Positions 8,526 to 25,702 of a stretch of DNA of 32,000 nucleotides are shown one piece after another. Source of the DNA: Candidatus Saccharimonadota bacterium (GTDB lineage Bacteria > Patescibacteriota > Saccharimonadia > Saccharimonadales > Saccharimonadaceae); NCBI GenBank assembly GCA_016700015.1, contig CP064995.1, forward strand, positions 390,001 to 422,000, given 5' to 3'. The translations under genes were made by a program, and so were the position numbers. The stretch's first letter is position 1; each line of letters opens with the position of its first letter. The notes under the pieces were generated by a model. It was not told the DNA's origin and ran no database searches. It worked only from the letters and a program-made list of their open reading frames with translations.

Positions 8526-8562
8526 AATGAATCTCCGATCGACTCGCGAGATTCATTGTTTT
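8526..8562 (+). terminator. Rho-independent terminator ending the r-protein/rpoA transcription unit
   Basis: Perfect 10-bp stem AATGAATCTC / GAGATTCATT with a 12-nt loop, followed by GTTTTG. Confidence 0.75.
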
Positions 8563-8568
8563 GCGGAG

Positions 8569-8577
8569 TGTTATAAT
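8569..8577 (+). promoter_or_regulatory. Extended -10 promoter TGtTATAAT, 7 nt before ATG 8584 (predicted leaderless mRNA)
   Basis: Perfect TGnTATAAT. There is no SD between it and the ATG. Confidence 0.5.
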
Positions 8578-8583
8578 ACCACT

Positions 8584-9657
8584 ATGGCATTCCCACCAGT
8601 CCCCGACTACTCAAAAACCACCGCGAACAGAGCAGGTCGCGCCTTAGCAAGCGGAAAGCTTACCGGCAAAGACTATAGAGACGCTGCCGAGATAGTCAAT
8701 GCGTGGAGGATATGTCACGCATATCCGCTTAATACGTTCAACGCAACACTTCGCAAGAAGACGACGAAATATAGAGGTGCAATCGTAGCGCAACGACTCA
8801 AACGACTCCCTACAATCATTGATAAGCTTCAGCGGCAACCCAACATGGACTTAACTCGCATGCAGGACATCGGCGGCGTGCGAGCAATTGTTAATAATCT
8901 GAACGAGCTCGCAGAGTTACGACATGATTATGAAGAAAAGGGCCGCTTTTCTCATGAGCTATTTGACGTAGACGACTATATCGGGAGCCCAAAACAGGAT
9001 GGCTACCGAGGAGTCCACCTGATATACAAATACAATAACTCTCTGGCGCGCAATAGTAAGGGCAACCCATCACAGTACAAGGGGCTTTTTATTGAGGTAC
9101 AACTTCGGACTTTATTGCAGCATGAGTGGGCGACTGCGGTCGAGGCAGTGAGCGTAATGCTCGGCCAGCACCTCAAGACGCAACGCGGAAATCGCTCGTG
9201 GCTGGAGTTTTTTGAATATATGTCCTCTATCTTTGCGATTATTGAGAAGTCGCCAGTTCTTAATAAGCACAAAAACCTTACTACTCAACAGATTACAGAC
9301 CAAGCGGCACAAGCAATCAGCGACCTCCACGTGATTGATGCGCTGGGTGGGTGGAAGCGTGCAGCACAGTTGATCGACACACACCATGTTGACAAACACT
9401 ACAACCTCATTGTACTTAACACGAAGGATAAAACTGTCCGGGTGAGACCGTATACCCGCAATAACCTGGTGGCTGCGTCCAAAGAGTACTCGCGCCTTGA
9501 GGAAGAAGCGCTGATTAACCCCGACCTCGACATTGTGCTCGTGGCAGCGGGTGGTATAAAAGAGCTAAAAAAAGCGTATCCAAACTATTTTCTCGATATT
9601 GAAAACTTTATCGAAAAAGTCAAAGACGTTGTCAAAGTTTCAAGGCGTGAGGTATAA
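8584..9657 (+). CDS. RelA/SpoT-homologue: small-alarmone-synthetase / toxSAS-like nucleotide pyrophosphokinase with about 150-aa C-terminal extension
   Basis: Synthetase-fold motifs RLKRLPTIIDKLQR, MQDIGGVRAIV, GYRGVHLIYKY, IEVQLRTLLQHEWA. No HD hydrolase, TGS or ACT regions. The track start 8527 lies inside the terminator hairpin, so ATG 8584 (MAFPPVPDY) is preferred. Confidence 0.85.
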   Translation: MAFPPVPDYSKTTANRAGRALASGKLTGKDYRDAAEIVNAWRICHAYPLNTFNATLRKKTTKYRGAIVAQRLKRLPTIIDKLQRQPNMDLTRMQDIGGVRAIVNNLNELAELRHDYEEKGRFSHELFDVDDYIGSPKQDGYRGVHLIYKYNNSLARNSKGNPSQYKGLFIEVQLRTLLQHEWATAVEAVSVMLGQHLKTQRGNRSWLEFFEYMSSIFAIIEKSPVLNKHKNLTTQQITDQAAQAISDLHVIDALGGWKRAAQLIDTHHVDKHYNLIVLNTKDKTVRVRPYTRNNLVAASKEYSRLEEEALINPDLDIVLVAAGGIKELKKAYPNYFLDIENFIEKVKDVVKVSRREV

Positions 9658-9897: not shown

Positions 9898-11280
9898 ATG
9901 TCAGAAACGGGCCATTTCAAGGACGCTGGGCTGGATCGCTTGGCTAGAGACGGGAATAATGTTGCTCAATTTGCGAGTTACGATGAAACTGGGAACCCCC
10001 GCTACAGTCGTGTTGTAGGGCTTTCCCCAAACTATCAATTTAGCTCACTGGAAGAGGCAGTTGACTACCTGCTCGCCAACACCACTGAGCACTCGCTCAA
10101 TGTTCGTAGCTTTGCTCCCAATGATGCCAAGAGCAAACCTTTTGATTACGAACTAAAAACTAGTGAAGCGGTACTTGCCAGTCTACGCGCACGCCAAGCC
10201 GAGGGGCTCCACACAATTATCAATGAAACTGTCAGTATTCATGACGGCGGGGTGTCGGGTGTCGTTCATGGCGATGTTGTTGAGTTTGCGCCCCACGACA
10301 CGCCACGCTGCGTCGAGAAGCCAGGAACCGTCGTGCTGAGCCGCAAAATGGGCCGAAGTGTCATTTACCTTGTCTATGGCATTGTGCCGAAGTTTCCCAG
10401 TAGCCCGGAAATCCGACAAGAATTTAGTATTCATCCCCTACGCCATGGATTTCGTAATGAGCATACAATCGTATGGGAAACTGAACATCTAGATGCCTAT
10501 CCGGAGCGTGCAGACACACAATGGCCTAATCGATTTAGTGATATGCTAGGCGATAAAACATTTGGATTGATAGTGGCGAATCAAATTGGCTTACGAGTAC
10601 CCCGCACGACAGTATTCAATCGCACCGTGGCACCATTTACGTTCGGCGATCCGACCGGCAGCCCCGAGCCCTGGATCCGCACAGCCCCCAACCACCAAAC
10701 TCCAGGTAAATACACGACTGAAAGGGGATGGCTTGACCCATTCATGCTAATGCAGCGCGAAGATCCGACTGGTAAAAATATTGCCTCGATTTTGCGCCAA
10801 GATGGTGTCGATGCCAAATTTAGCGGCGCTTGTGCTATGGGCTCAGATGGTGAGCTGATTATTGAAGGCAAGCAGGGTTTTGGTGATAGATTTATGGTTG
10901 GTGAAGATAAAATGAACGATATACCGCCAGAAGTGCAAATGGCAATCGAGGACACCTACTATCAAGCCCAGCGCTCGCTAGGCCCCGTGCGTTTTGAATG
11001 GGTGTACGACGGTAAGCGCACATGGGTCGTGCAACTTCACCGCGGCGTAAGTGTTTCAAGCGGAACTACTATTTACCCTGAGGTTAGTGGTAGTACAGTT
11101 CGCTATATCGGCTATGATACGAGTCGGGGGCTAGAGAGCCTACGCGAAATGATTGGTAGCTCCGAGCCCGGGACAGGCATAATGCTGATCGGTGACGTCG
11201 GTATTACCAGCCACTTCGGCGACGTGCTACGAAAGGCACGCATACCGTCGAAATTATTACGTAAGGTAACTGATGCCTAA
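9898..11280 (+). CDS. PEP-synthase/PPDK-like phosphotransferase: unknown N-domain + ATP-grasp (PPDK_N-like) + C-terminal phosphohistidine swivel motif
   Basis: 460 aa with an AGGAGAGG RBS. LGDKTFGLIVANQIGLRVPRTTVF, GKQGFGDRFMVGE and VRFEWVYDGKRTWVVQLHRG resemble the PEP/pyruvate-binding ATP-grasp domain. GDVGITSHFGDVLRKARIPS resembles the GG.TSH.AI.AR..GIP swivel-His motif (His codon 11212-11214). Confidence 0.6.
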   Translation: MSETGHFKDAGLDRLARDGNNVAQFASYDETGNPRYSRVVGLSPNYQFSSLEEAVDYLLANTTEHSLNVRSFAPNDAKSKPFDYELKTSEAVLASLRARQAEGLHTIINETVSIHDGGVSGVVHGDVVEFAPHDTPRCVEKPGTVVLSRKMGRSVIYLVYGIVPKFPSSPEIRQEFSIHPLRHGFRNEHTIVWETEHLDAYPERADTQWPNRFSDMLGDKTFGLIVANQIGLRVPRTTVFNRTVAPFTFGDPTGSPEPWIRTAPNHQTPGKYTTERGWLDPFMLMQREDPTGKNIASILRQDGVDAKFSGACAMGSDGELIIEGKQGFGDRFMVGEDKMNDIPPEVQMAIEDTYYQAQRSLGPVRFEWVYDGKRTWVVQLHRGVSVSSGTTIYPEVSGSTVRYIGYDTSRGLESLREMIGSSEPGTGIMLIGDVGITSHFGDVLRKARIPSKLLRKVTDA

Positions 11281-12055
11281 CCACATTGATACTGTACTGC
11301 GCTCAACACTGGCAGAATGCACCGTTTCATGGTCAGAAGCCAAAACCAGCCCGCTTGACGCCTACGTGGACTTTCAGTGTCGACTTGGAAGCCTGGCGAC
11401 GCGGTATGAAGACTATATTAGTACCGCGATTACAAGTGGTGGGTACCGACGTGATTCTACGCTCAAGTATCGTGAAGTTGTTGCAAAAAACACCGACTAC
11501 GCGCTGATGATTGCCGATGAGTTCCATCGTAGAGGGCTTACTGATGCTGAGCTTACGCTTGATGCTGTTGCTCTAGGCAAAGTCGCCGGCTGGAAACAAA
11601 GCGATTTTTTGACATTCTTTTTAACCGCAATGGCGCGTCCCGTCGTACCTGGCCTTAGCTCACCAGAGTATCGCCACTTACTCGACATATATAATCACCC
11701 GCAGACCTACGACAAAGCAACCTTTGACGATGAGTCACTTAGGAATGATGTACGCCTACCACACTACCAGGCATTCGCTACAGAATATTGGCAGCGCACA
11801 AAAGTACTCGATGTTGCACCAATCGATAGATCAATCCGCGTAGCTGACTGGAACCAGTCGCTAGGCAGTCAAGCAGAAGAGCATTTTGCGCGACTTATCG
11901 GCATTCGCGTCGCCACGCCACAAATTATTACGTCGAGCTGTGATTTTAGCTTGCTAGACTTACCTCATGATCTTTCTACGAGTGTAAAAGAGTTACGGGA
12001 ACTCGGCGCCCATATCATTGCTCCGCCCGAAGCTTCAAAACTGGTATTAACATAA
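11273..12055 (+). CDS. Hypothetical 260-aa protein, translationally coupled to the phosphotransferase
   Basis: ATG 11273 overlaps the upstream stop by 8 nt (ATGCCTAA). Long ORF with no family recognised. Confidence 0.6.
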   Translation: MPNHIDTVLRSTLAECTVSWSEAKTSPLDAYVDFQCRLGSLATRYEDYISTAITSGGYRRDSTLKYREVVAKNTDYALMIADEFHRRGLTDAELTLDAVALGKVAGWKQSDFLTFFLTAMARPVVPGLSSPEYRHLLDIYNHPQTYDKATFDDESLRNDVRLPHYQAFATEYWQRTKVLDVAPIDRSIRVADWNQSLGSQAEEHFARLIGIRVATPQIITSSCDFSLLDLPHDLSTSVKELRELGAHIIAPPEASKLVLT

Positions 12056-12093
12056 ATTTTCATTACTATAATTTATCCAGGGTGCCCATAAGG

Positions 12094-12102
12094 TGCTACA
12101 CT
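12094..12102 (+). promoter_or_regulatory. Extended -10-like box TGcTACACT, 7 nt before ATG 12109
   Basis: Same geometry as at 8569 and 25147; the hexamer is weaker. A TATAAT box is also present at 12067-12072. Confidence 0.3.
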
Positions 12103-12108
12103 ATCTTT

Positions 12109-12813
12109 ATGAAAATACTCATATTGGCCGCTACACATGGCAATGAACTCTTAGGACCCAAGCTTATTGAATACATGTTACGTAAACACCCGAGTCTCTT
12201 TGAGTATATTGAGTTTATCGTTGCAAACCCTCGCGCGCTTGCAAAACGTATTAGGTATACCGAATCAGACTTGAACCGTAGTTATGGGCTAGGAACTGAT
12301 ACTTATGAGCAGCGACGTGCAAATGACATCGAGGCGCATATCAAAGCCACGCAACCAGATATTGTTCTTGATATGCACACAACCGCCTGCGTACAGCCGC
12401 CGATTATGATCGTAGGTAACATAACCAATGCTACTGTTCGAGCATACTTAAGAAACTGTCACATCTCTACCGTATTACAAGTAAAGCCGCTACACGATAT
12501 CGCGACTATTACACCAAGCATTGTTGCGTACGAGATTATGAACCGTGATGTAACGACCAATGTTTTAGAGCAAATTTGCGAAGATTTAAATAAATTTTTG
12601 AATAACAAAGTCGAAAAAAAAGTCATTAATCTTTACCGTATGTCCGATAAAATTTATAAACGAGACATTACTGCAGCGCAGGCAAAAACATTTAAAAATT
12701 TCGAGATGAATGAATTGGGATTTATCCCAATTATGACAGGGAATAATTCATACAAAAAACAAACCGATTACCTAGGATTTAAATCAGCCGAACCGATCGA
12801 TCTGGTTCTCTAA
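12109..12813 (+). CDS. Succinylglutamate desuccinylase/aspartoacylase (AstE/AspA) family zinc deacylase
   Basis: MKILILAATHGNE, NPRA...R....DLNR, YE.RRA and DMHTT match the family metal- and substrate-binding motifs. ATG 12109 is preferred over GTG 12082. Confidence 0.75.
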   Translation: MKILILAATHGNELLGPKLIEYMLRKHPSLFEYIEFIVANPRALAKRIRYTESDLNRSYGLGTDTYEQRRANDIEAHIKATQPDIVLDMHTTACVQPPIMIVGNITNATVRAYLRNCHISTVLQVKPLHDIATITPSIVAYEIMNRDVTTNVLEQICEDLNKFLNNKVEKKVINLYRMSDKIYKRDITAAQAKTFKNFEMNELGFIPIMTGNNSYKKQTDYLGFKSAEPIDLVL

Positions 12814-13757
12814 CATCTAATTTCTGGATAAAGATCTGCGGTATTTTTTAGGGCAGAAAGAAGCGCCCATTCAAATCGCTCACGGTGGATCGACGTAACC
12901 ACAGTAATATTTGGGTGACGCTCGCTATATTTTCGTCGATCTGCTACTGACATCCCAAATGTATGCTCACCCTTTGTCTCGATAACTATGTCCATCTTCA
13001 CCGTCTTAAATGCTTTTTGATCCAAAAAATAAAAAGCGGCCAATGCATCATAAACAAGTGCGGCTTTCACTTTCTCATGCTTTGAAATGCCAGCGATAAA
13101 ATGTCGCATCATTTTATGTAGGTTAGCATATAGTGCTTTGCCCTTGAGTGAATCAAAAAGATCAAGCTGGATTTTAATTACGTTACATGGATCAAGAGGA
13201 ACTAATACCTTTGGACAATCGCTTCGTATTACAATATCTGCCGCCTCCGGGTCAACAAAAAAATTAAATTCAGCCACTCGATTTTTATTGCCAGGTGATT
13301 CAATCGCGCCACCCATAATAACTAGCTCTTTTATATTATTTTCAATACCTGGGTTTGATTTTAGTAGTTGAGCAACATTTGTTAATGGGCCGATAGTTAA
13401 GATACTAACCTCACCTGGATAGAGATTTAGATAGTGCTTCATTATAGACACTGCATCCTTGGACAGTGTATAGATAGTATTACTAACGTCTAAACCATCA
13501 ATCCCGCTATCGCCATGAACTTCAGCGGTGACTAACTTACGCCTAAGCGGCTTATCGGCACCCGAATGAATCGATATTTTTGAACCAACGAGGTCAAGTA
13601 CTGCCTGCGCATTACGTGTTACCTTTTCGATCGTAGCGTTACCAGCAACTGTTGTGATAGTTAATATATCAAATTGATTTGAACAGATCAGCAAGAGCAT
13701 GGCAAGGGCATCGTCGTGGCCGGCATCAGTATCAATAATAATTTTTTGCTTTCCCAT
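12810..13757 (-). CDS. Inosine/uridine-preferring nucleoside hydrolase family protein
   Basis: 315 aa. N-terminal IIIDTDAGHDDALAMLLL (DTD.G.DD..A signature). AAGGAG RBS; 1-nt gap to the upstream gene. Confidence 0.85.
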   Translation of the reverse strand: MGKQKIIIDTDAGHDDALAMLLLICSNQFDILTITTVAGNATIEKVTRNAQAVLDLVGSKISIHSGADKPLRRKLVTAEVHGDSGIDGLDVSNTIYTLSKDAVSIMKHYLNLYPGEVSILTIGPLTNVAQLLKSNPGIENNIKELVIMGGAIESPGNKNRVAEFNFFVDPEAADIVIRSDCPKVLVPLDPCNVIKIQLDLFDSLKGKALYANLHKMMRHFIAGISKHEKVKAALVYDALAAFYFLDQKAFKTVKMDIVIETKGEHTFGMSVADRRKYSERHPNITVVTSIHRERFEWALLSALKNTADLYPEIRC

Positions 13758-13758
13758 G

Positions 13759-14484
13759 CTACTCCTTTTCCTTCAGTATATCAGCAAATAATTCTTCTAC
13801 TGTATCGGCATAAAAATATTCTTTTTGCGATCTACCGTGCGCACCAATCAAGCACCCAAGTGCGCCTCTTTGCACCGCAGGCTCAATATCTACAGAGGGT
13901 TTATCACCAATAACAAGGGTTTTGTTAAGTGGTATCTTCATTTTTTTTGTAATAATTTCGAATATTCTTCCATCTCGCGTGGCCTTCGGCGGGTGGGCAT
14001 CGCTTTCATATCCAATCAACATGGCAAAATCATCTATTTTATAGTTTGACGCAAGTAATATTCGTCCACTTAACGATGTTGGGCTGCTTGTGAGCGCTAC
14101 AGTCTTAATATGTTTTTTCGCTAGCGCTCTTATAAGGTCTGAAACATGATGTTGATCGCTAAAATATCCTTTAGGATCCAGCTGCGTCATATGCTGATGA
14201 AGAATTGTGAAATTTGGAATCAACGGTTTCTGGCGGGGTAGGTATATGCTGATGTCGCCGGTAAATAGTGCTTGCTCAGCCCCAACCCCATGCTGACGGA
14301 ACTGATTTGCAACCTTTTCAGCTTTCGGTATTGAAATGTGAAAGTACTCTGCAATTGCTCGTTCGACTGCAAGCCCATATTGTTTATAGAAGTCTTTTCC
14401 AGTTGCACGAACAAGTGTGTCATCAACATCGCATATGATGAGCTCTACGTCTTTAAAAGCATTGGAATGATATTGGTGCCCCAC
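13759..14484 (-). CDS. HAD-superfamily phosphatase (5'-nucleotidase-like)
   Basis: 241 aa. Motif I LIICDVDDTLV (D.D.T), motif II TALTSS, motif IV VIGDKPSVDI. GTG start, 2-nt gap to the upstream gene. Confidence 0.8.
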   Translation of the reverse strand: MGHQYHSNAFKDVELIICDVDDTLVRATGKDFYKQYGLAVERAIAEYFHISIPKAEKVANQFRQHGVGAEQALFTGDISIYLPRQKPLIPNFTILHQHMTQLDPKGYFSDQHHVSDLIRALAKKHIKTVALTSSPTSLSGRILLASNYKIDDFAMLIGYESDAHPPKATRDGRIFEIITKKMKIPLNKTLVIGDKPSVDIEPAVQRGALGCLIGAHGRSQKEYFYADTVEELFADILKEKE

Positions 14485-14486
14485 GC

Positions 14487-16004
14487 TTATCCGCCCGCAA
14501 CATTGTTTGTTGCCGTCACATACTCTTTCATCTTTGCAGTGGCCGCTCCTGTATGGATAATCTCTAGGGCCTCACGTGTAGCCGCTCGTAGATAATCAGC
14601 ATTCACACGCCGCGTATCTGCATGTAGGGCATCGACACGATCTAGATATTTTCTTGTAAATATACCAAGACCGGCGGTCATAGCTAAATACATTGCTTTC
14701 GCCTCATCCCTGCCAGCAAGTGCATCTCGATTCGCGGCAAGGATAGCATCGACTTCATTTGGAACCATAAGACCATGCATTGTCATCACCGACAGTTGCC
14801 CTTCGGTAAAAAAGTCTGTCGGCCTTATCTCAAAAGTTCCTGCAAGTTCGCCGCCTCGCATAAACGCTGCCACTGTCGCATAGGGTGGTGGAGCAACCTC
14901 ATCGATCGCCACACTTTCACGTGCTTCAGGAGAATGGTAGTACGATTTTGGATCAAACATGTCAGGGTGAGCAACCTCTCGATCCGTTCCAAAGAATGCC
15001 ACACTATTATCGTACGTTTGAAATTTGCGTTTTGAGAGTATCTCAAGCGCCGAGATCACAGTGGCGGGATGGATTTTCTCGTTTACGCCGATGAAGCCAT
15101 TAGCAACTGTCTCAGGCGTTAGTGTATATGCGAGAGGACCAATGATATGGTTGATGGTTTCACCTTTAAGTCGATGTGAAAGTGTATGAAGCGTTCTCGT
15201 GTTGTGGCAACTCGACATCATTAGTCCCACTTCATCCAGAAGTTTTTGAAATGCTTCGGGATTATGAAAATCCGAGCGTGCACCAAGCGCCTCGACAGCA
15301 GACTGACCTGCTACTTTTGAGGTGTTTGGGTATGAGTGATGTTTGTGCGTTGCTCCATCGACTGCCAAGATTGCAGAAGACAATGTTGATAAACTAAAAA
15401 GTTTGGAGGTTTTACCAGTACGGCCATATCCTTTATCGCCACCCATACCGCCGAGAGCAATAACAGGTCGTTGGCTCTCTGTTCGTACAACCGTGTCTAA
15501 ATCAACTGTTGCGGCAACAACTCCAGCTATTTCTTCGGGAAGAAGACCGACGTACCCTTCTTTGGAAGACATGCCACTTAAAAGACTCGTTGCTTGCATG
15601 AGCTGCGTCTCACGTACATCTGACCGCCGAGTGGTACTAGAGGGAATCCAAAGCGGATATGCCGGTACTGGCGCATATTCTAATATTGATGAACGCACTG
15701 CTCTATTGAGCGACATGACGACAAAGGCAATGAGGCTATATGCTTCTTCGAAAGTAAGCTCGCCGCCATGCTTTAATTTTGCATCAATCCCATAGAATCC
15801 TGCCTCATAAAGCGGCGCAAGTTCATAGCTTTTTACTGCTTTTACTCGCTTGTCGAGACGTGAAAAGTAATCAGCACTTTGTGCAAGCTTATTAAGTGAG
15901 CTTGAGCAATCGATTTCCTCTTTATACCCCAGACCGTCAGTAATTTCTTGCTGGTAAGGGTAACCACTTAGATGAATCGTCGGGATGTTTCTATTTGCTT
16001 TCAT
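14487..16004 (-). CDS. TrpD-family (glycosyl transferase family 3) phosphoribosyltransferase-like protein with about 180-aa N-terminal extension
   Basis: LGGMGGDKG...FSLSTLSSAILAVDGATHKHHSYPNTSKVAGQSAVEALG parallels TrpD GTGGDG..FNISTA.A...A..G..VAKHGNR..SS.SGSADVLEALG. HRLKGETINHIIGPLAYTL parallels R.ELG.RT.FN.LGPL.NP. ATG 16004 (AAAGGAAA RBS) is preferred; ATG 16022 is the alternative. Confidence 0.7.
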   Translation of the reverse strand: MKANRNIPTIHLSGYPYQQEITDGLGYKEEIDCSSSLNKLAQSADYFSRLDKRVKAVKSYELAPLYEAGFYGIDAKLKHGGELTFEEAYSLIAFVVMSLNRAVRSSILEYAPVPAYPLWIPSSTTRRSDVRETQLMQATSLLSGMSSKEGYVGLLPEEIAGVVAATVDLDTVVRTESQRPVIALGGMGGDKGYGRTGKTSKLFSLSTLSSAILAVDGATHKHHSYPNTSKVAGQSAVEALGARSDFHNPEAFQKLLDEVGLMMSSCHNTRTLHTLSHRLKGETINHIIGPLAYTLTPETVANGFIGVNEKIHPATVISALEILSKRKFQTYDNSVAFFGTDREVAHPDMFDPKSYYHSPEARESVAIDEVAPPPYATVAAFMRGGELAGTFEIRPTDFFTEGQLSVMTMHGLMVPNEVDAILAANRDALAGRDEAKAMYLAMTAGLGIFTRKYLDRVDALHADTRRVNADYLRAATREALEIIHTGAATAKMKEYVTATNNVAGG

Positions 16005-17178
16005 TGCTAGTTTTCCTTTCATTAGTTCTTTTGTGCCGAATAGTATTTTGCGAATGTTTGATATCTTGGATGAATGAGTTGAGTTGTTCTTTTGTTACGC
16101 CCGGCATACAAATCACGTGGCTAACACCTCCGTAGGTAGCCAGTTGCCATTTATGAATAATCTCCTTAGGCGGCTGCTTTATCACTACAGTAAATGCAGC
16201 TTCATTTTTCCACGCTGGCCAGCCGATACAACGGAGTTCGGTATGTAAATAACGTGCTAATTCCATCGAATTGATCGCTCGTTTGCGCAGGCCATCGGTT
16301 CCAAGTTTTTTAATGGTGTACCAAAGCATGATTGGAGTATGGCCATTTCGTGATCCGGAAATTGTCGAATCTGGCGTGCCGGTATACAGTGCGCTACGAA
16401 CCACCTTGTCGCGATAACTTTTACGCGTAATCACCACTCCGCTCGGCATCGGGCATCCGATAAATTTGTGTCCGCTGATACTGATCGCATCTGCACCGTC
16501 AGCAAAATCAAACGGATGATGGGGAATTGCAAAGGCTGTATAGACGCCTGCCAGCGCTGCATCACAGTGCACAAATGATGCATCATCAAAGCCGAGGTCA
16601 TCGAGGATGTGCTGAATAATGTACACATTGTCCTTTGCCTCGGACATTGTCGTTCCAATCGTCGCGACGACAATCACCTGAGTAGCGCCGGATTTTATTA
16701 TATTTTTCTTGAGACTGCTATAGTCCATCTCGCCCGACTCTTCAGATGCGACCGCAATTCCTTGCATGCCGAGTATACCGATATTCTTCGGTATACTATA
16801 GTGAGCGCTATTACTATAAAATACCGGCGCTTCAGGATATAGTTCGCGGGCAACATAAAGCGAATACAAATTTCCTTCGGTACCACCATTTGTAACATAA
16901 CCCCATCGATCAGATTTGGGAGCATGAAACAAATCAGCAAAAAAATCGACAACTTCACGTTCTAGTCGTTTGGAATGATTTGCATGGAGCGGACTCACAT
17001 ACGGATCGCCAACATTATTGAGTAAATATTGGAAGAACGGTAGTAGCTCAGAATAATCGAAATCGACCGAACCCGGAAATCCTATAAAATATGGATAATC
17101 CTTGCGGATCTCCGCCATAAATGCTGTCAAAGTATGGTGATCGGCACGGTTCAATTGGCTTTCTTTTCGCTTAATCAC
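15991..17178 (-). CDS. Group II PLP-dependent decarboxylase, histidine-decarboxylase type
   Basis: 395 aa. Collinear with Gram-negative HDC motifs: GFPGS.DFDY, WGYVTNGGTEGN, GEMDY, ATIGTT, HCDAALAG, PFDFADGADAISISGHKFIGCPMPSGVV (PLP lysine), ISGSRNGHTP. GTG start after a GAGAGG RBS. Confidence 0.75.
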   Translation of the reverse strand: MIKRKESQLNRADHHTLTAFMAEIRKDYPYFIGFPGSVDFDYSELLPFFQYLLNNVGDPYVSPLHANHSKRLEREVVDFFADLFHAPKSDRWGYVTNGGTEGNLYSLYVARELYPEAPVFYSNSAHYSIPKNIGILGMQGIAVASEESGEMDYSSLKKNIIKSGATQVIVVATIGTTMSEAKDNVYIIQHILDDLGFDDASFVHCDAALAGVYTAFAIPHHPFDFADGADAISISGHKFIGCPMPSGVVITRKSYRDKVVRSALYTGTPDSTISGSRNGHTPIMLWYTIKKLGTDGLRKRAINSMELARYLHTELRCIGWPAWKNEAAFTVVIKQPPKEIIHKWQLATYGGVSHVICMPGVTKEQLNSFIQDIKHSQNTIRHKRTNERKTSNESK

Positions 17179-17241
17179 ATAATACCTCTCTTATCACAAT
17201 ATCCCCATCGGTTGACGGGGAGCAATAAATAGCACTCACAA

Positions 17242-17646
17242 CTACCAACCAGTACTCTTTGGGCTATTATGCCTGGGAATAGTATAATAAGAAATCTTGT
17301 CTTCCGGTTCGGACTCGGGCTGATTGCTTTGGGCACGGTGTTGCATATTCCGTGCCAGTCTCATAAGATCCAAAAAAATGTCCAACAGGTCCTCATTACT
17401 AATTGGACCTTCGTTTTCGGCCATAATATGCTCAAGTACCTCGTTCTCACGCCGAATATTAAAGATAGGTCTTTTCTCTGCTAATTTCAAAGCGCCAGCC
17501 GCAAGCGCTAGTTGCATACGACGGTTGAGCAGCTTTACGAGCTCAGAGTCAACCTTGTCAATCTCTTCGCGTACTGCAAGAATATCTGCCGCACCCTTCG
17601 CAACTTCTGTCATAGACTTATACTCCCAATATAATACTGAGTACAT
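17242..17646 (-). CDS. AroQ-class (type II) chorismate mutase-like protein
   Basis: LAVREEIDKVDSELVKLLNRRMQLA...K......I....RE.EVL matches the CM type II helix pattern. ATG 17646 (AAGGAAG RBS) or ATG 17613 (GGGAG RBS). The track start 17739 is unlikely. Confidence 0.65.
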   Translation of the reverse strand: MYSVLYWEYKSMTEVAKGAADILAVREEIDKVDSELVKLLNRRMQLALAAGALKLAEKRPIFNIRRENEVLEHIMAENEGPISNEDLLDIFLDLMRLARNMQHRAQSNQPESEPEDKISYYTIPRHNSPKSTGW

Positions 17647-17775
17647 GCTACCACTTCCTTTAGTCTGTATGCAAGAGCCATCACCATGAACAGCATAGTA
17701 ATATGCACAACGACGACTGCTCGTAATCCAGGAGGGCATTTGTTATGATAGGAAAGACGAGGAGGCATGCGCTTT

Positions 17776-18807
17776 ATGAGGAAAACAATACTGACTGGTA
17801 TTAGAGCGAATAACGATTTGCATATAGGTAACTATTTTGGCGCTATGTTGCCGATTGTTGATATGGCTAAAACTCGTTCAAGCGAATACGATGTAAACTT
17901 TTTTATTCCTGATCTTCATAGTTTCACCACACCAATCGACCACTCGCAGTTGTTCGATAGCATCATGAACAACGCACGTATTTATACAGCCGCCGGGCTA
18001 CCGCTCGACAACGAGAATATTCACATTTACCGCCAAAGCTATGTGCCAGCTCATAGCGAGCTGACTATTATCCTGAACAATTTCGTGGGCATGGGTGAGA
18101 TGGAGCGCATGACCCAATACAAAGATAAAAGTGCAAAGCTCGGTAGCGACCGAGTGAGCGTAGGGCTATTTGACTATCCCGTGCTGATGGCAAGCGACAT
18201 TCTGCTTTACAACGCAAAGTATGTGCCGGTCGGCGATGACCAAACCCAGCACTTAGAAATTACACGAGATATTGCCGAGCGCATGAATAACAAATTCAAT
18301 ACAGAGCTTTTCGCGATACCCGAGCCCGTTGTCAAACAGCACGAGTTTTTTGGCAAAGACCAGGGATTGCGCATTAAGGACCTATTAGACCCAAGTAAGA
18401 AAATGAGCAAAAGTGACGAAACTGGCAAGGGTGTGGTGTTCCTTAGTGACGAGCCCGAGCTAGCCCACAAAAAAATCATGAGTGCAGCAACAGATGATAA
18501 GGCAAATATCCAGTATGACAAAGTAAATCAGCCTGGCATTGCAAACCTTATCGACATTTTGGCGCTACTGCGCGGCGTCAGACCCGCCGATGTTGAGGCA
18601 GAGTTTAAGGGTAGTCAGCGCTATGGCGACTTCAAACAGGTTGTGGCCGACGAAATGGCAGCGTTTTTACGTGATTTCCAGCAGCGACTCGCTAGTGTTG
18701 ACGACGCGGCGATTATTGCCAAACTCGAAGCGAGCGAACGCGCAATGAATGAGATTGCAAACCAAACGCTCCTGCGCGTACAAAAGGCAGTTGGTCTGAG
18801 AAAGTAA
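17776..18807 (+). CDS. trpS: Tryptophan--tRNA ligase
   Basis: Class I signatures HIGN (HIGH) and KMSKS are present. GDDQ.QH.E..R..A..N motif typical of TrpRS. ATG 17776 is 10 nt after GAGGAGG; ATG 17767 is the alternative. Confidence 0.93.
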   Translation: MRKTILTGIRANNDLHIGNYFGAMLPIVDMAKTRSSEYDVNFFIPDLHSFTTPIDHSQLFDSIMNNARIYTAAGLPLDNENIHIYRQSYVPAHSELTIILNNFVGMGEMERMTQYKDKSAKLGSDRVSVGLFDYPVLMASDILLYNAKYVPVGDDQTQHLEITRDIAERMNNKFNTELFAIPEPVVKQHEFFGKDQGLRIKDLLDPSKKMSKSDETGKGVVFLSDEPELAHKKIMSAATDDKANIQYDKVNQPGIANLIDILALLRGVRPADVEAEFKGSQRYGDFKQVVADEMAAFLRDFQQRLASVDDAAIIAKLEASERAMNEIANQTLLRVQKAVGLRK

Positions 18808-21910: not shown

Positions 21911-22321
21911 ATGAGTGCGAATTGCAATAATTGTAATAGCATCCTAGGTAAATCAAGTAGTAAATATTGTTCGAATAAGTGTCAGAAAGACTACGAATAT
22001 AATGCGTATATTACAGCGTGGAAAAGAGGCAAGACATCAGGAGTGAGAGGCGTAAATACGATAAACTTTTTTCAGCACGTAGTTCGCTATCTATGGAATA
22101 AATATGCAGGGAAATGTGCGCGATGTAGTTGGTCTCAAGTAAATCCAGTTACCAAGAGACCGCCCCTTGAGATTGACCACATCGATGGAAATTCGATGAA
22201 TAATATCGAACGTAATTTAATATTGCTTTGCCCGAATTGTCATGCAATAACTCCCACTCATAAAAACTTGAATTTGAGGTTTGGTAGACATTGGCGCAGA
22301 ACTAGGAATATGCTACAATAA
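21911..22321 (+). CDS. HNH endonuclease with N-terminal Cys-rich (zinc-ribbon-like) segment
   Basis: CNNC...YCSNKC at the N-terminus. HNH core EIDHIDGN..NN...NL.LLCPNCHA. Confidence 0.8.
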   Translation: MSANCNNCNSILGKSSSKYCSNKCQKDYEYNAYITAWKRGKTSGVRGVNTINFFQHVVRYLWNKYAGKCARCSWSQVNPVTKRPPLEIDHIDGNSMNNIERNLILLCPNCHAITPTHKNLNLRFGRHWRRTRNMLQ

Positions 22322-22328
22322 CCGATGT

Positions 22329-22405
22329 GCCGCTTTAGCTCAGTTGGTTAGAGCACCTCTTTTGTAAAGAGGGGGTCCTGGGTTCGAATCCCTGAAGCGG
22401 CTCCA
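22329..22405 (+). tRNA. tRNA-Thr (anticodon UGU), CCA encoded
   Basis: Hand-folded cloverleaf: acceptor GCCGCTT/AAGCGGC, anticodon stem CCTCT/AGAGG, loop TTTGTAA, T-loop TTCGAAT. There is one U-U mismatch in the T stem. Confidence 0.9.
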
Positions 22406-22519
22406 TGATGCGTGCACAAAAACGGTTGTGCCCGCATTTGGAAAGAACAGATAGTCTCGAGCGACGCGCTCGCTCGCACCGCTCGGTGAGAAAACTGAGT
22501 TCACCTATTCCACATATTT

Positions 22520-22604
22520 GCCGGAGTCGTCTAGCGGCAATGACAAGAGACTGTAAATCTCTCGGCGCAAGCCTTCGTAGGTTCGAGTCCTACCTCCGGT
22601 ACCA
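22520..22604 (+). tRNA. tRNA-Tyr (anticodon GUA), type II long variable arm, CCA encoded
   Basis: Acceptor GCCGGAG/CTCCGGT, anticodon stem AGAGA/TCTCT, loop CTGTAAA, 14-nt variable arm, T arm GTAGG-TTCGAGT-CCTAC. Confidence 0.92.
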
Positions 22605-23670: not shown

Positions 23671-25119
23671 TTAGTCAGTGTACTCTAAGCTGATCGGCGT
23701 ACGAATGTTCTTTGCCAAATCGCCAATCGGAATAGGATAGTCACCCAAAAACGGCGAAAGATTGAATGCTTCAGCATTTTGGCCTGTCGCTGACACCATA
23801 GTAGACACCGATAAAAACCCAAGGTAGTCAGCGCCAAATGCCAGCCGCATTTGCTCGACAGTCAGATTTGCAGCCATAAGCTCACGCTGGTCAGGCGTAT
23901 CGGTACCATAGAAGTCCGGGTAGCGGATGGGGGGCGAAGCAATAAGAATAGTCACCGAGCGCGCACCGAGTGAGCGGGCCAGCTGGACAAGCCGAGGCAG
24001 CGTGTTGCCGCGCACAATCGAATCATCAACTAGCACAATGTCGCGGCCACTAATACGTTCACCGTTCATCGTGTGTTTGATTTGCAGGCTACTACGACGG
24101 GACTCCTGACTGGGTTGCATAAATGTCCGGCCGACATAGCGATTTTTGATAATCGCCATTTCATGCGTGATGTGTGTTTGTTCAGATAAGCCCTCGGCGG
24201 CAAACACCGACGTATCTGGTACCGGTACGATCAATGGGTGCGATAGTGTACTGAGATGATCCCCGTGAAGTGTTGCCAGCTGGTGACCGAAACGTCGACG
24301 AACTTCGCTGACGCGCTCACCAAGCATCACGCTATCCGGCCGGGCAAAATATACCAGTTCGAACATATCAAAATGCGGTGTTGGTTCGCGAAGTTGCGCC
24401 GAGAAGATAATCAAGCCATTGCGCGCAACCACTAGTTCGCCCGGCTGCACAGAGCGCAGGTGTTCGGCGCCAATCGTATCGAGTGCACAGGTTTCACTTG
24501 CCGCCACAACACCGCCGTCAAAGGTACCAAGCTCGAGCGGGCGCACGCCGTGTGCATCACGAAACGTGTACATCATGTCATCGTGAATACCGGTACAAGC
24601 ATACGCACCATCGACATGACTAATGATATCCCGCACCGACTCCTCAATATTACCACCACTATCGGCGATACCAAGAAACGTCGCCTTGCCGAGTTTACCC
24701 GAGTCGTTATATTGGTTTACCCTATATCCACGCCTACGTAACATATCGTCGAGGTATGACGTGTCTGGTAGGTTACCGTTATGCGACTGAGCATCGCCGG
24801 TGTCGGAGTTGACAATGGGTGAGGGATGATCGTTCTTGTCGCCATTTGTCGAATAGCGATTATGGCCAGTTGCGACTGAACCCGTGAGCCCCAGCAGGTC
24901 GTCTTTTCGAAACACATCACGTACCATACCGAGCCGTCGTACCGCGTGCACACCACCCGTGCTGGCATTGGTTGCGATACCCGATGCCTCTACCCCACGA
25001 TGCTGCAAAGCAAACAATGCCTGATAGGCAATTTTTGCAGCCTCGTCGCCGTAGTTAGCGACAGAGACGCCGACTACAGCGCATCTTTCCCGTAGCCTAT
25101 CGTGACTGATGTGAGACAT
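23671..25119 (-). CDS. purF: Amidophosphoribosyltransferase
   Basis: 482 aa. Ntn-type CAVVGV after a 12-residue leader, LQHRGVEASGIA, GHNRYSTNG, PRT motif IVLVDDSIVRGNT. Confidence 0.9.
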   Translation of the reverse strand: MSHISHDRLRERCAVVGVSVANYGDEAAKIAYQALFALQHRGVEASGIATNASTGGVHAVRRLGMVRDVFRKDDLLGLTGSVATGHNRYSTNGDKNDHPSPIVNSDTGDAQSHNGNLPDTSYLDDMLRRRGYRVNQYNDSGKLGKATFLGIADSGGNIEESVRDIISHVDGAYACTGIHDDMMYTFRDAHGVRPLELGTFDGGVVAASETCALDTIGAEHLRSVQPGELVVARNGLIIFSAQLREPTPHFDMFELVYFARPDSVMLGERVSEVRRRFGHQLATLHGDHLSTLSHPLIVPVPDTSVFAAEGLSEQTHITHEMAIIKNRYVGRTFMQPSQESRRSSLQIKHTMNGERISGRDIVLVDDSIVRGNTLPRLVQLARSLGARSVTILIASPPIRYPDFYGTDTPDQRELMAANLTVEQMRLAFGADYLGFLSVSTMVSATGQNAEAFNLSPFLGDYPIPIGDLAKNIRTPISLEYTD

Positions 25120-25162: not shown

Positions 25163-25702
25163 ATGAGAAACCCAGCATCTGAGCATCTCCCCGATGCCAT
25201 ACGCGAGGAACTACTGCAATCCGGAATAGTTTCAGGAGATTTTATACTCGCGTCAGGAATACGCGCAGCAAAGAAATTTGATTTCGATCTAATTCCAACG
25301 AACAGTGACCTATTTGAAATTGTAGTATCTGGCCTCGCACGATGCATCCGCAATCAATTTAGCAGCTTTGATGCAATAGTAACCATTGCAAATGGCGCGA
25401 CAAGACTTGGAGACCCAATTGCTCACCAACTTAACGTGAGCCATACCCCGACCACCTATCATGTTGATGAGCTGGGCCAAAAACAGTTTGTCGTCCCTCA
25501 GCTAAGCACAGAGCGTCACTGTATCATTGTTGACGATGTATTCACGAAGGGCACAAACGCTACCAAAGTAGCCAGTCGACTTGCTGCTCGTGGCTGTGCT
25601 ATTGGCGGCGTGGGTGTCATACTTGATCGCTCAAATGTTGCATCGCCAGCGATATGTCATGACTCGCCTGTAGTGAGCCTCATCAAGCAACAGCTATTAT
25701 AA
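25163..25702 (+). CDS. Type I phosphoribosyltransferase, orotate-PRT-like
   Basis: 179 aa. GDFILASG....KFDFD and PRPP loop CIIVDDVFTKGTNA, then GVGVILDR, as in PyrE-type enzymes. Confidence 0.7.
   Translation: MRNPASEHLPDAIREELLQSGIVSGDFILASGIRAAKKFDFDLIPTNSDLFEIVVSGLARCIRNQFSSFDAIVTIANGATRLGDPIAHQLNVSHTPTTYHVDELGQKQFVVPQLSTERHCIIVDDVFTKGTNATKVASRLAARGCAIGGVGVILDRSNVASPAICHDSPVVSLIKQQLL

Follow-up and report, generated by a model that had tools for sequence, protein, structure and literature searches.

The question raised by this locus is whether a compact run of genes in a Saccharibacteria genome, found in a window of 32,000 nt, encodes one metabolic pathway, and what that pathway might do. 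The five minus-strand genes, their families and their spacings (Table 1) are as first described: coordinates agree, and the profile searches that were run returned matches for CM_2, Pyridoxal_deC, HAD Hydrolase, IU_nuc_hydro and, weakly (30 bits), Glycos_transf_3. The chorismate mutase (CM)-like gene starts at an ATG that is also the start of the database protein P0358 (an alternative ATG is at 17613), and it is followed, after a gap of 63 nt, by the decarboxylase gene, which starts with GTG and has a GAGAGG Shine-Dalgarno sequence. The decarboxylase gene overlaps the transferase gene by 14 nt, or by 32 nt with an alternative ATG at 16022, the start that gives the shorter overlap agreeing with the 505-aa database protein P0001; gaps of 2 nt and then 1 nt lead on to the phosphatase and nucleoside hydrolase genes. 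A sixth gene was overlooked in the preliminary description, which had counted five: it encodes an AstE/AspA-like enzyme and runs towards the hydrolase gene from the opposite strand, the two overlapping by 4 nt. The divergent trpS lies 120 nt from the CM start, and the intergenic region presumably holds promoters; it contains weak palindromes only, and searches of it revealed no Rfam match, T-box or trp-operator-like site.

Table 1. Features of the cluster and its surroundings, in window positions.
Feature	Coordinates	Strand	Description
AstE/AspA-like gene	12082..12813	+	zinc amidohydrolase, catalytic domain only, 243 aa
Nucleoside hydrolase gene	12810..13757	-	IU-type, variant subclass
HAD gene	13759..14484	-	HAD-superfamily phosphatase
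TrpDL gene	14487..16004	-	505-aa extended phosphoribosyltransferase, TrpD fold
Decarboxylase gene	15991..17178	-	group-II PLP decarboxylase, HDC/serine-decarboxylase family
CM_2 gene	17242..17646	-	AroQ-class chorismate mutase-like, 134 aa
Intergenic region	17647..17766	.	120 nt, divergent, common to cluster and trpS
trpS	17767..18807	+	tryptophan--tRNA ligase, divergent from cluster

The transferase is 100% identical to P0001, recorded as [quoted passage not shown] and represents a family of ~500-aa proteins of the TrpD fold that we name here TrpDL. Its relatives number 115 among 1.84 billion representatives, and those found belong to CPR bacteria only; a divergent subfamily has ~470 aa. Profile matches are weak, Glycos_transf_3 (Pfam) covering only residues 203-318 and the trpD model TIGR01245 scoring 39 bits versus a cut-off of 199, while the AF2 model (pLDDT 90, pTM 0.92) finds, as its top 50 Foldseek matches in the PDB, exclusively TrpD, the anthranilate phosphoribosyltransferase (AnPRT; best E 5e-15, TM 0.85). 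Comparison with AnPRT residues of assigned roles (PMC9835598) separates two parts of the active site. On the PRPP side, GTGGD corresponds to GMGGD, the 5'-phosphate serines S142/S143 correspond to T228/S229, and an invariant D368-E369 stands at the expected place of the Mg-binding DE, as mapped by motif order and secondary structure. On the anthranilate side, N138 and R193 are replaced by S224 and S276, both invariant in the family. Judged from sequence, TrpDL keeps the PRPP motifs of AnPRT, and its anthranilate-binding residues are replaced.

As to which genes belong with TrpDL, we now have 64 non-redundant TrpDL loci for comparison, with genes scored within the fetched flanks. A HAD gene or a gene for a BtpA TIM barrel follows TrpDL in 58 of these, the remaining six being mostly short or truncated contigs. 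A single protein combines TrpDL and HAD in 11 non-redundant loci, and P0112 and P0118 are fusions of the same kind. TrpDL, HAD and nucleoside hydrolase genes are adjacent in 24 of the 64, and the same trio is kept around the divergent ~470-aa subfamily and around the divergent relative P0260; in other CPR lineages, BtpA replaces the HAD and hydrolase pair. The HAD protein of the window (Pfam Hydrolase, E 5e-9) carries the motifs DVDDT, ALTSSP, and GDKPSVD. Homologues of the AstE-like enzyme (Pfam AstE_AspA_cat, E 8e-17; closest solved relatives aspartoacylase and aspartoacylase-2, E 1e-7) are encoded in 17/64 loci; their genes often stand, translationally coupled, in between a TrpDL-HAD fusion and the hydrolase gene, or else just ahead of TrpDL. 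The first arrangement, with overlap of the neighbouring genes, is that of L013, L015, L071, L077, and L081. By their gene arrangement, TrpDL, the predicted HAD phosphatase and the predicted nucleoside hydrolase form a genuine functional unit, and the AstE/AspA-like enzyme is a conserved companion of this module.

The cluster recurs in a second lineage of Saccharibacteria (L028/L029), where all six genes, the AstE-like one included, stand beside trpS, in a different order and with proteins 35-61% identical to those of the window; in L028, the decarboxylase and TrpDL genes abut (0 nt), TrpDL and HAD overlap by 32 nt, and HAD and hydrolase by 1 nt. As these six genes recur by trpS, the cluster is more than a chance assembly. 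The opposite view, that of unrelated scavenging genes in a variable island, packed by genome compaction and sharing no function, can call on the compactness of CPR genomes, on a G+C content of 0.40-0.46 in the cluster region versus 0.48-0.50 in the flanks, and on the fusA-tuf island, whose genes differ among Saccharibacteria. Against it stand the TrpDL-HAD gene fusions, the conservation of the trio across the divergent subfamily, and the fact that the module has joined trpS and trpR again and again, in varied orders and orientations and in several CPR classes, and we consider it most improbable.

The decarboxylase and the CM-like protein present a different picture. The decarboxylase (Pfam Pyridoxal_deC) scores 432 bits against the NCBIfam "histidine decarboxylase" model NF002748 (cut-off 305), and it is about equally close to a plant serine decarboxylase (8jij, E 2e-80) and to a bacterial histidine decarboxylase (HDC; 7erv, E 5e-79). 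The position that decides is the last of the YP[x] motif, occupied by Glu in the bacterial HDC of known structure and by Tyr in serine decarboxylase; it also sets specificity in plant Ser/Ala decarboxylases (PMC11407765). The window enzyme reads GFPGSVDFDY versus GYPESADFDY of HDC, with Gly at this position, and the 120 closest homologues have V, I, A, G, or L, neither the HDC Glu nor the serine decarboxylase Tyr being found in any of them. As Gly takes the place of the HDC Glu, production of histamine by this HDC-type enzyme is doubtful. The CM-like protein (Pfam CM_2, E 1e-19; all NCBIfam equivalogs under cut-off) has residues aligning with R11, R28, K39, R51, E52, and Q88 of EcCM. Among the 64 loci, the decarboxylase accompanies TrpDL in two lineages only, the window and L028/L029, and its close relatives are also found without TrpDL; the CM gene is near TrpDL in six loci, at varying positions, is separated from the operon by ~65 nt in both the window and L028/L029, and adjoins fusA in some relatives. 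Both genes occur in the variable fusA-tuf island of some Saccharibacteria. Their co-occurrence with TrpDL could be positional. The decarboxylase is thus best described as a lineage-specific addition to the TrpDL module, and the CM gene as a loosely linked neighbour of the operon.

These data also bear on the idea of a dedicated five-gene pathway, in which chorismate- or histidine-derived chemistry would feed an HDC-type decarboxylase, and the resulting histamine or aromatic amine would be phosphoribosylated, dephosphorylated, and de-ribosylated. The translational coupling from decarboxylase to hydrolase in the window and L028, the clustering of all five genes in two diverged lineages despite rearranged order, and the presence in the CM-like protein of the catalytic residues expected of a functional AroQ enzyme all speak for it. 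Given the narrow distribution of the two additional genes, the Gly of the decarboxylase, the gaps that part CM from the operon, the fusA neighbourhood of CM in relatives and the lack of a visible chorismate source, we regard such a pathway as very unlikely. The window cluster is a composite operon around a conserved TrpDL core and not one conserved five-gene pathway.

The most conserved neighbour of TrpDL is trpS, mentioned at first as incidental to the cluster: it is within the fetched flanks of 40/64 loci, in several orientations, and in the window it is securely identified (TIGR00233, 285 bits versus a cut-off of 177). In 15/64 loci trpR is also a neighbour. In 913 kb of TrpDL loci, 15 CTAG-N4-CTAG sites occur, 13 of them extended to TACTAG..CTAGT, and all 13, in 13 of the fetched loci, stand immediately ahead of the TrpDL operon or its leading trpR; these predicted operators resemble the E. 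coli trp operator. In L044, a single strand reads operator-trpR-astE-trpDL-HAD-NH-trpS. The tryptophan-tied arrangement (trpS, trpR, operator-like site) is established in the sequences of relatives, and a TrpDL/HAD/hydrolase set beside trpS, often under trpR, points to a tryptophan-controlled pathway. In the window, neither trpR (by tblastn) nor a trp-operator-like site was found, and tryptophan control of the cluster in this genome we infer only by analogy. As originally noted, Trp, His, and shikimate genes were not found among the large ORFs of the window, and tblastn with TrpD, TrpA, TrpB, and TrpR of a relative gave no match there.

A tryptophan connection might be taken to mean that TrpDL is a divergent phosphoribosyltransferase of anthranilate, or of a close analogue, in a variant branch of tryptophan biosynthesis or salvage: a host-derived precursor would be deacylated by the AstE-like or an M20 enzyme and phosphoribosylated by TrpDL, and BtpA, as a TrpF-like Amadori isomerase, would pass the product towards tryptophan. 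This would fit the AnPRT fold and the PRPP motifs, and also the presence of TrpR and operator in the operons, as in the classical trp operon; BtpA belongs to the ribulose-phosphate-binding-barrel group, with a faint match to phosphoribosylanthranilate isomerase (E 5e-4). The trpD-trpA-trpB-trpR genes that adjoin the cluster in L028 fit as well, but they also mean that a canonical TrpD is encoded alongside TrpDL; moreover, the invariant serines and the low TIGR01245 score argue against anthranilate, a phosphatase and an N-glycoside hydrolase following the transferase would break down an intermediate needed for biosynthesis, and trpC, trpF, trpE, and trpG are seen in none of the fetched loci. 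The probability of such a branch is accordingly very low.

We instead favour, tentatively and at somewhat less than an even chance, a composite CPR operon for a tryptophan-regulated, PRPP-dependent route of N-ribosylation, dephosphorylation, and de-ribosylation, acting on an amine other than anthranilate. Phosphoribosyl transfer followed by dephosphorylation is a sound reading of the fold and PRPP motifs of TrpDL, and this part of the N-ribosylated amine route initially proposed is retained, while its assignment to five genes as a single conserved pathway is not. The order of the genes is not that of the reactions. TrpDL would place the 5-phosphoribosyl group from PRPP on a nitrogen nucleophile other than anthranilate, and the HAD phosphatase, given its repeated fusion to TrpDL, would take off the 5'-phosphate, yielding an N-riboside. 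The riboside or its aglycone may then be processed by the AstE/AspA-type amidohydrolase, as its tight gene coupling suggests; in the window lineage, the PLP decarboxylase may convert an amino acid into the amine acceptor, or may decarboxylate a ribosylated intermediate. Finally, the hydrolase would cut the N-ribosidic bond and set free ribose and the processed base; the ribosyl group would then have been a temporary handle, much as when bases are interconverted at the nucleotide or nucleoside level. Were the base to pass through TrpDL, HAD, and hydrolase unchanged, the net result would be futile hydrolysis of PRPP, and thus the model needs either an intervening modification or an alternative last step, in which the hydrolase supplies ribose for PRPP. 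Regulation would follow from the position of the module beside trpS, or in one operon with it, and from the operator-like site in front where trpR is encoded. A description of this gene combination or route was not found in the literature, consistent with what had been stated at the outset; the TrpDL/HAD/hydrolase module appears to be undescribed, and it is built from known kinds of enzymes.

The hydrolase itself (Pfam IU_nuc_hydro, E 3e-83; nearest NCBIfam model RihC, 243 bits, under the cut-off of 382) carries the N-terminal DTDAGHDD cluster, but has YDA in alignment with the HDP of 1mas and RihA, Tyr replacing the catalytic His, and the same Tyr is found in 10/11 TrpDL-linked orthologues, which argues for a non-standard leaving group. 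This substitution is relevant to another possibility, that of an ordinary nucleoside/nucleobase salvage module whose trpS neighbourhood is positional: the hydrolase would split scavenged nucleosides into base and ribose, TrpDL, an unusual phosphoribosyltransferase, would remake nucleotides from a standard purine, pyrimidine, or pyridine base, and HAD, as a 5'-nucleotidase, would balance pools or feed the hydrolase. CPR bacteria rely on nucleoside salvage, and parasites without nucleoside kinases pair nucleoside hydrolases with phosphoribosyltransferases. We find this possibility rather unlikely, as it would have a hydrolase without the catalytic His act on standard bases, would make a futile pair of the phosphoribosyltransferase-nucleotidase fused in 11 lineages, would add to type-I phosphoribosyltransferases already encoded in the window, and would leave unexplained both the embedded amidohydrolase and the trp-operator-like sites, trpR, and trpS of the same operons. 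In its favour, the hydrolase is most like RihA, RihC, and IU-NH, the HAD enzyme shows a weak similarity to YjjG-type nucleotidases, and small PfkB-type (ribokinase-like) kinases are present in 7 loci.

The five genes of the cluster are co-oriented on the minus strand and tightly packed, as the preliminary description had them, in both the ORF listing and the reverse-strand sequence, and Pfam and NCBIfam agree with its family assignments for all five (Table). The start at 17646 is that of an identical database protein (P0358, 134 aa), and the start at 16004 is that of the identical P0001 (505 aa, 'hypothetical protein IPM09_02265' of Candidatus Saccharibacteria bacterium, on a 1.01-Mb contig). 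The database version of the decarboxylase (P0121) starts 20 codons downstream of the GTG; the GTG start fits, since approximately 28-32 residues precede the GFPG motif in homologues. Elsewhere in the window are a ribosomal-protein/secY/rpoA operon, a RelA/SpoT-like gene, two orphan ORFs, rluD, holB, a gene for a TPR protein and tRNAs, and farther along a PurF-like gene, a small phosphoribosyltransferase (PRTase) gene and glycoside hydrolases, while no Trp, His or shikimate pathway gene was found nearby, within the 32-kb window, in keeping with the preliminary description. The G+C content is 0.40-0.46 over the cluster (window 12000-18000) versus 0.48-0.50 in the flanks, with the minimum of 0.40 over the AstE-like, hydrolase and HAD genes, and this dip may signal a variable or acquired island.

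Table. Coordinates of the features discussed, in the window and in related loci (L handles) carrying genes of the TrpD-like family (TrpDL).
Feature	Location	Coordinates	Strand	Remarks
CM_2 (chorismate mutase, CM)	window	17242..17646	-	63-nt gap to decarboxylase gene
PLP decarboxylase (HDC-type)	window	15991..17178	-	GTG start, GAGAGG SD; 14-nt overlap with TrpDL (32 nt from ATG at 16022)
TrpD-like (TrpDL)	window	14487..16004	-	2-nt gap to HAD gene
HAD	window	13759..14484	-	1-nt gap to nucleoside hydrolase gene
Nucleoside hydrolase (NH)	window	12810..13757	-	last of the five
AstE-like amidohydrolase	window	12082..12813	+	converges on hydrolase gene
trpS	window	17767..18807	+	divergent from cluster, 120 nt apart
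RelA/SpoT synthetase-domain protein	window	8527-9657	+	376 aa
Orphan ORF	window	9898..11280	+	460 aa
Orphan ORF	window	11273..12055	+	260 aa
HNH endonuclease	window	21911-22321	+	small
tRNA-Thr and tRNA-Tyr	window	22329-22604
PurF-like protein	window	23671-25119	-	GATase_6/7 and Pribosyltran domain
Type-I phosphoribosyltransferase	window	25163-25702	+	179 aa
Multi-pass membrane protein	L001	7867-8904		approximately 345 aa
BtpA/SgcQ TIM barrel	L002	7251-8039		directly after TrpDL
trp-operator-like site	L001	9779		TrpDL/trpR operon start
trp-operator-like site	L018	9784		TrpDL/trpR operon start
trp-operator-like site	L031	2033		TrpDL/trpR operon start
trp-operator-like site	L032	8904		TrpDL/trpR operon start
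trp-operator-like site	L013	9468		TrpDL/trpR operon start
trp-operator-like site	L019	9513		TrpDL/trpR operon start
trp-operator-like site	L044	1641		TrpDL/trpR operon start
trp-operator-like site	L068	2623		TrpDL/trpR operon start
trp-operator-like site	L028	13461		TrpDL/trpR operon start

As to the conservation of the cluster, we sampled 24 genome loci, 46 metagenome loci and 11 more loci by exact-protein look-up, annotated with ORF calling, clustering and HMMs of our own, the HMMs being derived from the window and related loci, with Pfam and NCBIfam checks; 64 non-redundant TrpDL loci form the base of the census. Beside TrpDL, trpS is found in 40 of these loci, a BtpA/SgcQ TIM barrel in 32, HAD in 28 (11 of them TrpDL-HAD fusions), nucleoside hydrolase in 27, HAD and hydrolase jointly in 24, an AstE/AspA-like amidohydrolase in 17, a multi-pass membrane protein with no Pfam match in 17, trpR in 15, a GNAT-like protein in 12, an M20 peptidase in nine, a small PfkB-type kinase in seven and chorismate mutase in six, and the decarboxylase in two lineages (that of the window and that of L028/L029). 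Either HAD or BtpA is positioned 3' of TrpDL in 58/64 loci, the six exceptions being mostly short or truncated contigs, and a divergent TrpDL relative of approximately 470 aa (P0260) is also part of a TrpDL-HAD-hydrolase operon. The preliminary description read the five genes as one set. As a conserved unit this stands for the core of TrpDL, HAD and hydrolase and fails for the chorismate mutase and the decarboxylase, and the set as drawn omitted the conserved AstE-like gene. The cluster is a composite, with TrpDL, HAD, the hydrolase and usually the AstE-like gene as its widely conserved core, to which two lineage-specific genes are added. Position alone may account for these two additions; for the cluster as a whole we regard mere juxtaposition as very improbable, given the recurrent fusions and the trio around the divergent relative. 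The membrane protein, which occurs in L001 and 16 other loci and is encoded beside trpS in the first seven genome loci mapped, could be a transporter related to tryptophan.

Among Saccharibacteria, the five-gene synteny that the preliminary description proposed to look for is found in loci L028/L029, from a Saccharibacterium whose TrpS and RluD are, respectively, 82% and 69% identical to those of the window. Here all five genes and AstE are clustered next to trpS, with CM and AstE on swapped sides: TPR-holB-rluD-trpS-astE are on one strand, HDC-TrpDL-HAD-NH-CM are divergent, and a canonical trpD-trpA-trpB, a 99-aa ORF and trpR follow. Identity with the window counterparts is 61% for HDC, 50% for TrpDL, 38% for HAD, 56% for NH, 44-51% for CM and 35% for AstE. 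In both arrangements the HDC, TrpDL, HAD and NH genes abut or overlap, and CM is approximately 65 nt away. Other loci hold parts of the assemblage: L030 has AstE-TrpDL-HAD-NH-trpS, with CM beside fusA; L044 has operator-trpR-AstE-TrpDL-HAD-NH-trpS; and L025 and L027 have a decarboxylase with AstE, MR_MLE, racemase and CM genes, and no TrpDL. Between fusA (EF-G) and tuf (EF-Tu), several Saccharibacteria (L025, L030, L036) have a variable island with differing mixes of trpS, CM_2, AstE-like, MR_MLE, racemase, decarboxylase, TrpDL-HAD-NH and pyrimidine genes.

TrpDL itself has over 200 homologues at 45-61% identity, of very uniform length (approximately 490-510 aa), and those with a named organism belong to CPR lineages, such as Saccharibacteria, Woesebacteria and Blackburnbacteria. 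Several of the TrpDL-bearing MAG records (L001, L003, L007-L010, L014, L017, L018) are titled 'uncultured Gammaproteobacteria/Pseudomonadales/Alphaproteobacterium', and one (L013) 'Limnocylindrales'; these labels are doubtful, as the gene content is CPR-like and TrpDL is otherwise seen only in CPR bacteria. When 1.84 billion representatives were searched exhaustively with a profile, only 115 TrpDL relatives were recovered, with canonical TrpDs at the edge of noise; judged from such searches, TrpDL is a small family, sharply set apart. None of the divergent relatives carries a name in the databases, and TrpDL proteins, where labeled, are called 'hypothetical protein' or 'anthranilate phosphoribosyltransferase'.

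One rival reading is a divergent anthranilate phosphoribosyltransferase (AnPRT) serving a variant tryptophan route, and the fold speaks for it. The AF2 model (pLDDT 90, pTM 0.92) has the two-domain AnPRT fold, and the top 50 Foldseek matches in PDB are all TrpD (best E 5e-15, TM 0.85, probability 1.0; TM on target 0.76-0.86). The roles of the PRPP loop, the 5'-phosphate serines, the Mg2+ ligands D251/E252 (M. tuberculosis) and N138/R193 in AnPRT have been described (PMC9835598). Of these, the PRPP-binding GTGGD is represented in TrpDL by GMGGD (186-190), invariant in profile alignments; K135-H136 (M. tuberculosis TrpD numbering) are retained; the 5'-phosphate-binding S142/S143 correspond to T228/S229, within KHHSYPNTS; and an invariant D368-E369 (IDEVAPPPY), the putative Mg2+-binding DE pair, comes after a short strand, a placement that goes by motif order and secondary structure. 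In all, TrpDL has in common with TrpD the GxGGD and KH...(S/T)S loops and, putatively, the DE pair. The acceptor side, however, differs. In an hhalign comparison with canonical TrpD, S224 and S276 take the places of the anthranilate-binding N138 and R193; both are invariant in the family, as are Y225 for R139, H277 for R194 and the added His/Cys residues H222, H223, C266, H267, H273, H277 and H286. Moreover, TrpDL is approximately 150 aa longer than TrpD (in the AF2 model, a beta-hairpin with helices at the N-terminus, an insertion, and helices at the C-terminus), is 15-20% identical to it, and fails the trpD model TIGR01245 (39 bits versus a cut-off of 199); Pfam Glycos_transf_3 matches residues 203-318 only (30 bits, cut-off 27), and Pfam finds no Glycos_trans_3N. 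TrpDL also coexists with a canonical TrpD in the same genome locus (L028), and its downstream partners are a phosphatase and an N-glycosidase instead of TrpF and TrpC. With these differences we consider an AnPRT in disguise quite improbable. Sequence and structure prediction show a remodeled putative acceptor site next to retained PRPP motifs, and in our reading TrpDL would be a transferase that depends on PRPP and takes a new acceptor.

Two other groups of the TrpD fold are relevant here. TrpD2/YbiB, likewise a paralogue outside tryptophan biosynthesis, is defined by loss of the PRPP-binding motif and by nucleic-acid binding (PMC9835598). TrpDL, in contrast, retains the motif, its coupled genes encode small-molecule enzymes, and no TrpD2 chain is among its top 50 PDB fold matches. 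The TrpD superfamily also includes nucleoside phosphorylase family II (NP-II) and the archaeal AMP phosphorylase, known from the CPR/archaeal nucleotide-to-RuBisCO pathway; the latter enzyme is similar in length to TrpDL (approximately 500 aa), and the two have in common a role, putative for TrpDL, in the ribose-phosphate metabolism of CPR-type organisms. The motifs of TrpDL, however, are TrpD-like and not those of the NP-II phosphate site, Pfam finds no PYNP_C (alpha/beta hammerhead) domain in it, and in the Foldseek search NP-II chains rank nowhere above TrpD, which fills the top 50. Ordinary nucleobase and nucleoside salvage, which the nucleoside hydrolase partner would suit, we hold to be unlikely.

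The partner enzymes have their own peculiarities. The nucleoside hydrolase (Pfam E 3e-83) possesses the N-terminal DXDXXXDD calcium/ribose-binding cluster (DTDAGHDD, residues 9-16), and the position of the catalytic His, the proton donor to the departing base (H241 in C. fasciculata IU-NH, H239 in RihA), aligns to Tyr (VYDA), as it does in 10 of 11 TrpDL-linked orthologues, including the divergent one of L034. The HAD enzyme has motifs I-IV (DxDxT, S/T, K, GDxxxD), with DVDDT, ALTSSP and GDKPSVD readable in the translation (Pfam Hydrolase E 5e-9), and no solved relatives of this enzyme were found by sequence. The BtpA/SgcQ barrel (L002 and 31 other loci) is encoded directly after TrpDL, replacing the HAD and hydrolase pair. 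It has faint similarity to phosphoribosylanthranilate isomerase, in L031 it is followed by a low-molecular-weight phosphatase, and a literature search on BtpA/SgcQ returned unrelated BtpA acronyms only.

Phosphoribosyl transfer followed by a dedicated phosphatase is known from CobT/CobC (alpha-ribazole) and BtrL/BtrP (ribostamycin). The TrpDL module shares with them the attachment of phosphoribosyl onto an N or O nucleophile and subsequent removal of the 5'-phosphate, a pairing backed by the 11 independent TrpDL-HAD fusions, but the enzyme families are different, and the TrpDL module has conserved hydrolase and amidohydrolase partners and a tryptophan-regulon setting. By the model to which we tentatively lean, at a little below an even chance, TrpDL would convert X-NH and PRPP into an N-ribotide, which would be dephosphorylated to the N-riboside; at that stage the compound would be deacylated and, in the window lineage, also decarboxylated, before or after ribosylation, and in the final step the N-ribosidic bond would be hydrolyzed, the entire predicted route operating in a tryptophan context. 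At the level of sequence, it is supported by the recurrent HAD fusion, the variant N-ribohydrolase or BtpA partner, the often embedded zinc amidohydrolase, and TrpR and operator in relatives. The idea of a route that makes or unmakes an N-ribosylated amine, offered in the preliminary description, is thus kept at its core, with its scope changed and the tryptophan context added. A plain make-then-unmake sequence would be futile, so the base must be changed in between, or the hydrolase must act as a ribose supply.

A literal five-step route to histamine or an aromatic amine would need the two lineage-specific enzymes as well, and these do accompany the core in L028/L029. The decarboxylase scores 432 bits against the histidine decarboxylase model NF002748 (cut-off 305), and its PLP-lysine motif SxHK is present (SGHKF, aligned with that of 7erv and 8jij). 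It is, however, about equally similar to the Gram-negative-type HDC and the plant serine decarboxylase (E 5e-79 and 2e-80, respectively), all of the same family. The YP[x] pocket site sets Ser/Ala specificity in the plant decarboxylases, with Tyr for Ser and Phe for Ala (PMC11407765). At this position the window enzyme has Gly (GFPG), versus Glu (GYPE) in the solved bacterial HDC and Tyr or Phe in the plant enzymes, and the 120 nearest homologues have V/I/A/G/L, with E or Y in none. The 'histidine' label of the window enzyme is, as far as the pocket residue tells, not supported, and histamine is an unlikely acceptor for TrpDL, given this Gly. With CM found in six of 64 loci as well, the literal five-step route seems hardly probable. 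The same label is probably propagated without support, on the evidence of this residue, over a large subfamily (P0121-P0240, from Saccharimonadales, Pedobacter, Flavobacterium and Methylomirabilota) that has V/I/A/G/L for the HDC Glu; the Pedobacter relatives are stand-alone, beside an AsnC-type regulator. As to the chorismate mutase (Pfam CM_2 E 1e-19, every NCBIfam equivalog under its cut-off), the catalytic positions R, R, K, RE and Q of the EcCM set are occupied in the alignment to 2d8d and 1ecm, and the protein probably works as an AroQ enzyme. Within the 32-kb window no gene that would supply chorismate was seen, and a word-index homologue search, limited in reach, returned the self-match P0358 only.

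The trpS gene, mentioned in the preliminary description as divergently adjacent, gains importance from the regulatory features of related loci. Sites of the GTACTAGTTTGCTAGTTTAC type and its variants are present in intergenic regions 5' of TrpDL operons. CTAG-N4-CTAG occurs 15 times in 913 kb of TrpDL loci, 13 times in the extended form TACTAG..CTAGT, and each of the 13 extended sites either precedes TrpDL by 120-200 bp or immediately precedes an operon-heading trpR or AstE gene. We take their core and spacing to be those of the E. coli trp operator. The small regulator encoded in these loci matches Pfam Trp_repressor (E 2e-20) and is close to the cut-off of TIGR01321 (66.1 bits versus 67.25). 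The operator-like sites, the TrpR homologue, trpS within the same operons (L013, L044) and trpB/trpA/trpD next door (L028) place the TrpDL module in a tryptophan regulon, with predicted control of the TrpDL operon by TrpR and operator in the relatives, in the style of the trp operon. Well-known counterparts are the E. coli TrpR regulon and the trpR-containing salvage operons of Chlamydia, in which, too, a host-dependent organism has a partial tryptophan gene set under TrpR; like these, TrpDL loci combine a TrpR homologue with the CTAG-N4-CTAG core, but their targets are trpS, TrpDL, HAD or BtpA, hydrolase and amidohydrolases, and not trpEDCBA.

In the 32-kb window, neither trpR nor a trp-operator-like site was found, and for this genome the tryptophan link would rest on the trpS adjacency and homology. 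The intergenic region of the window cluster has weak palindromes only, and nothing near the cluster matches the GTTATC..GATAAC palindrome of L028. Rfam gave no riboswitch or T-box match in window 9-20 kb at E<=1, and promoter and terminator scans gave the same counts as shuffled sequence and are uninformative. A further reading, conceivable but doubtful, is that CPR bacteria unable to make tryptophan have a pathway induced by tryptophan starvation, in which PRPP would ribosylate a host-derived N compound, and riboside or Amadori-type processing would yield a tryptophan precursor, or the riboside would be exported as a signal or antimetabolite so that the host yields tryptophan. If this is true, TrpDL would be a new acceptor class of the TrpD superfamily and the Tyr-type hydrolase a new class of N-ribosidases.

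Literature searches found no paper tying CPR/Saccharibacteria to a TrpDL-type family, or to chorismate mutase or histidine decarboxylase in such a context, and none on the TrpDL family or the gene combination, consistent with the earlier remark that no such pathway was described. The enzyme kinds of the parts are already known, and so is, from other systems, the logic of two-step ribosylation. New is a well-delimited, widely conserved module, seen only in CPR lineages, in an unexpected regulatory context. CPR/Patescibacteria, which account for a large part of bacterial diversity, live on other cells with minimal metabolism, and their ways of acquiring tryptophan and other costly amino acids are poorly understood. 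The association of TrpDL with a fused phosphatase, a non-canonical nucleoside hydrolase and an amidohydrolase, together with trpS, trpR and a trp-operator-like site, would mark a tryptophan-responsive pathway nameless in current annotation. It offers an experimental handle in four soluble enzymes, the cheap donor PRPP and one repressor-operator pair. Two widely propagated mis-annotations are also probable, 'anthranilate phosphoribosyltransferase' for TrpDL and 'histidine decarboxylase' for the large bacterial subfamily devoid of the HDC pocket residue.

Some further features of the window deserve mention. The overlapping orphan ORFs upstream of the AstE-like gene, on the same strand, have zero Pfam or NCBIfam matches and zero homologues in the related loci, and were on these grounds dropped as members of the system. 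The PurF-like gene is located approximately 6 kb past the cluster, with the type-I phosphoribosyltransferase gene divergent from it; these two would be additional PRPP users in a genome expected to be devoid of de novo purine synthesis. The RelA/SpoT synthetase-domain protein, which is small-alarmone-synthetase-like, is encoded directly 3' of the ribosomal-protein operon, and the HNH endonuclease gene is positioned just 5' of the pair of tRNA genes.
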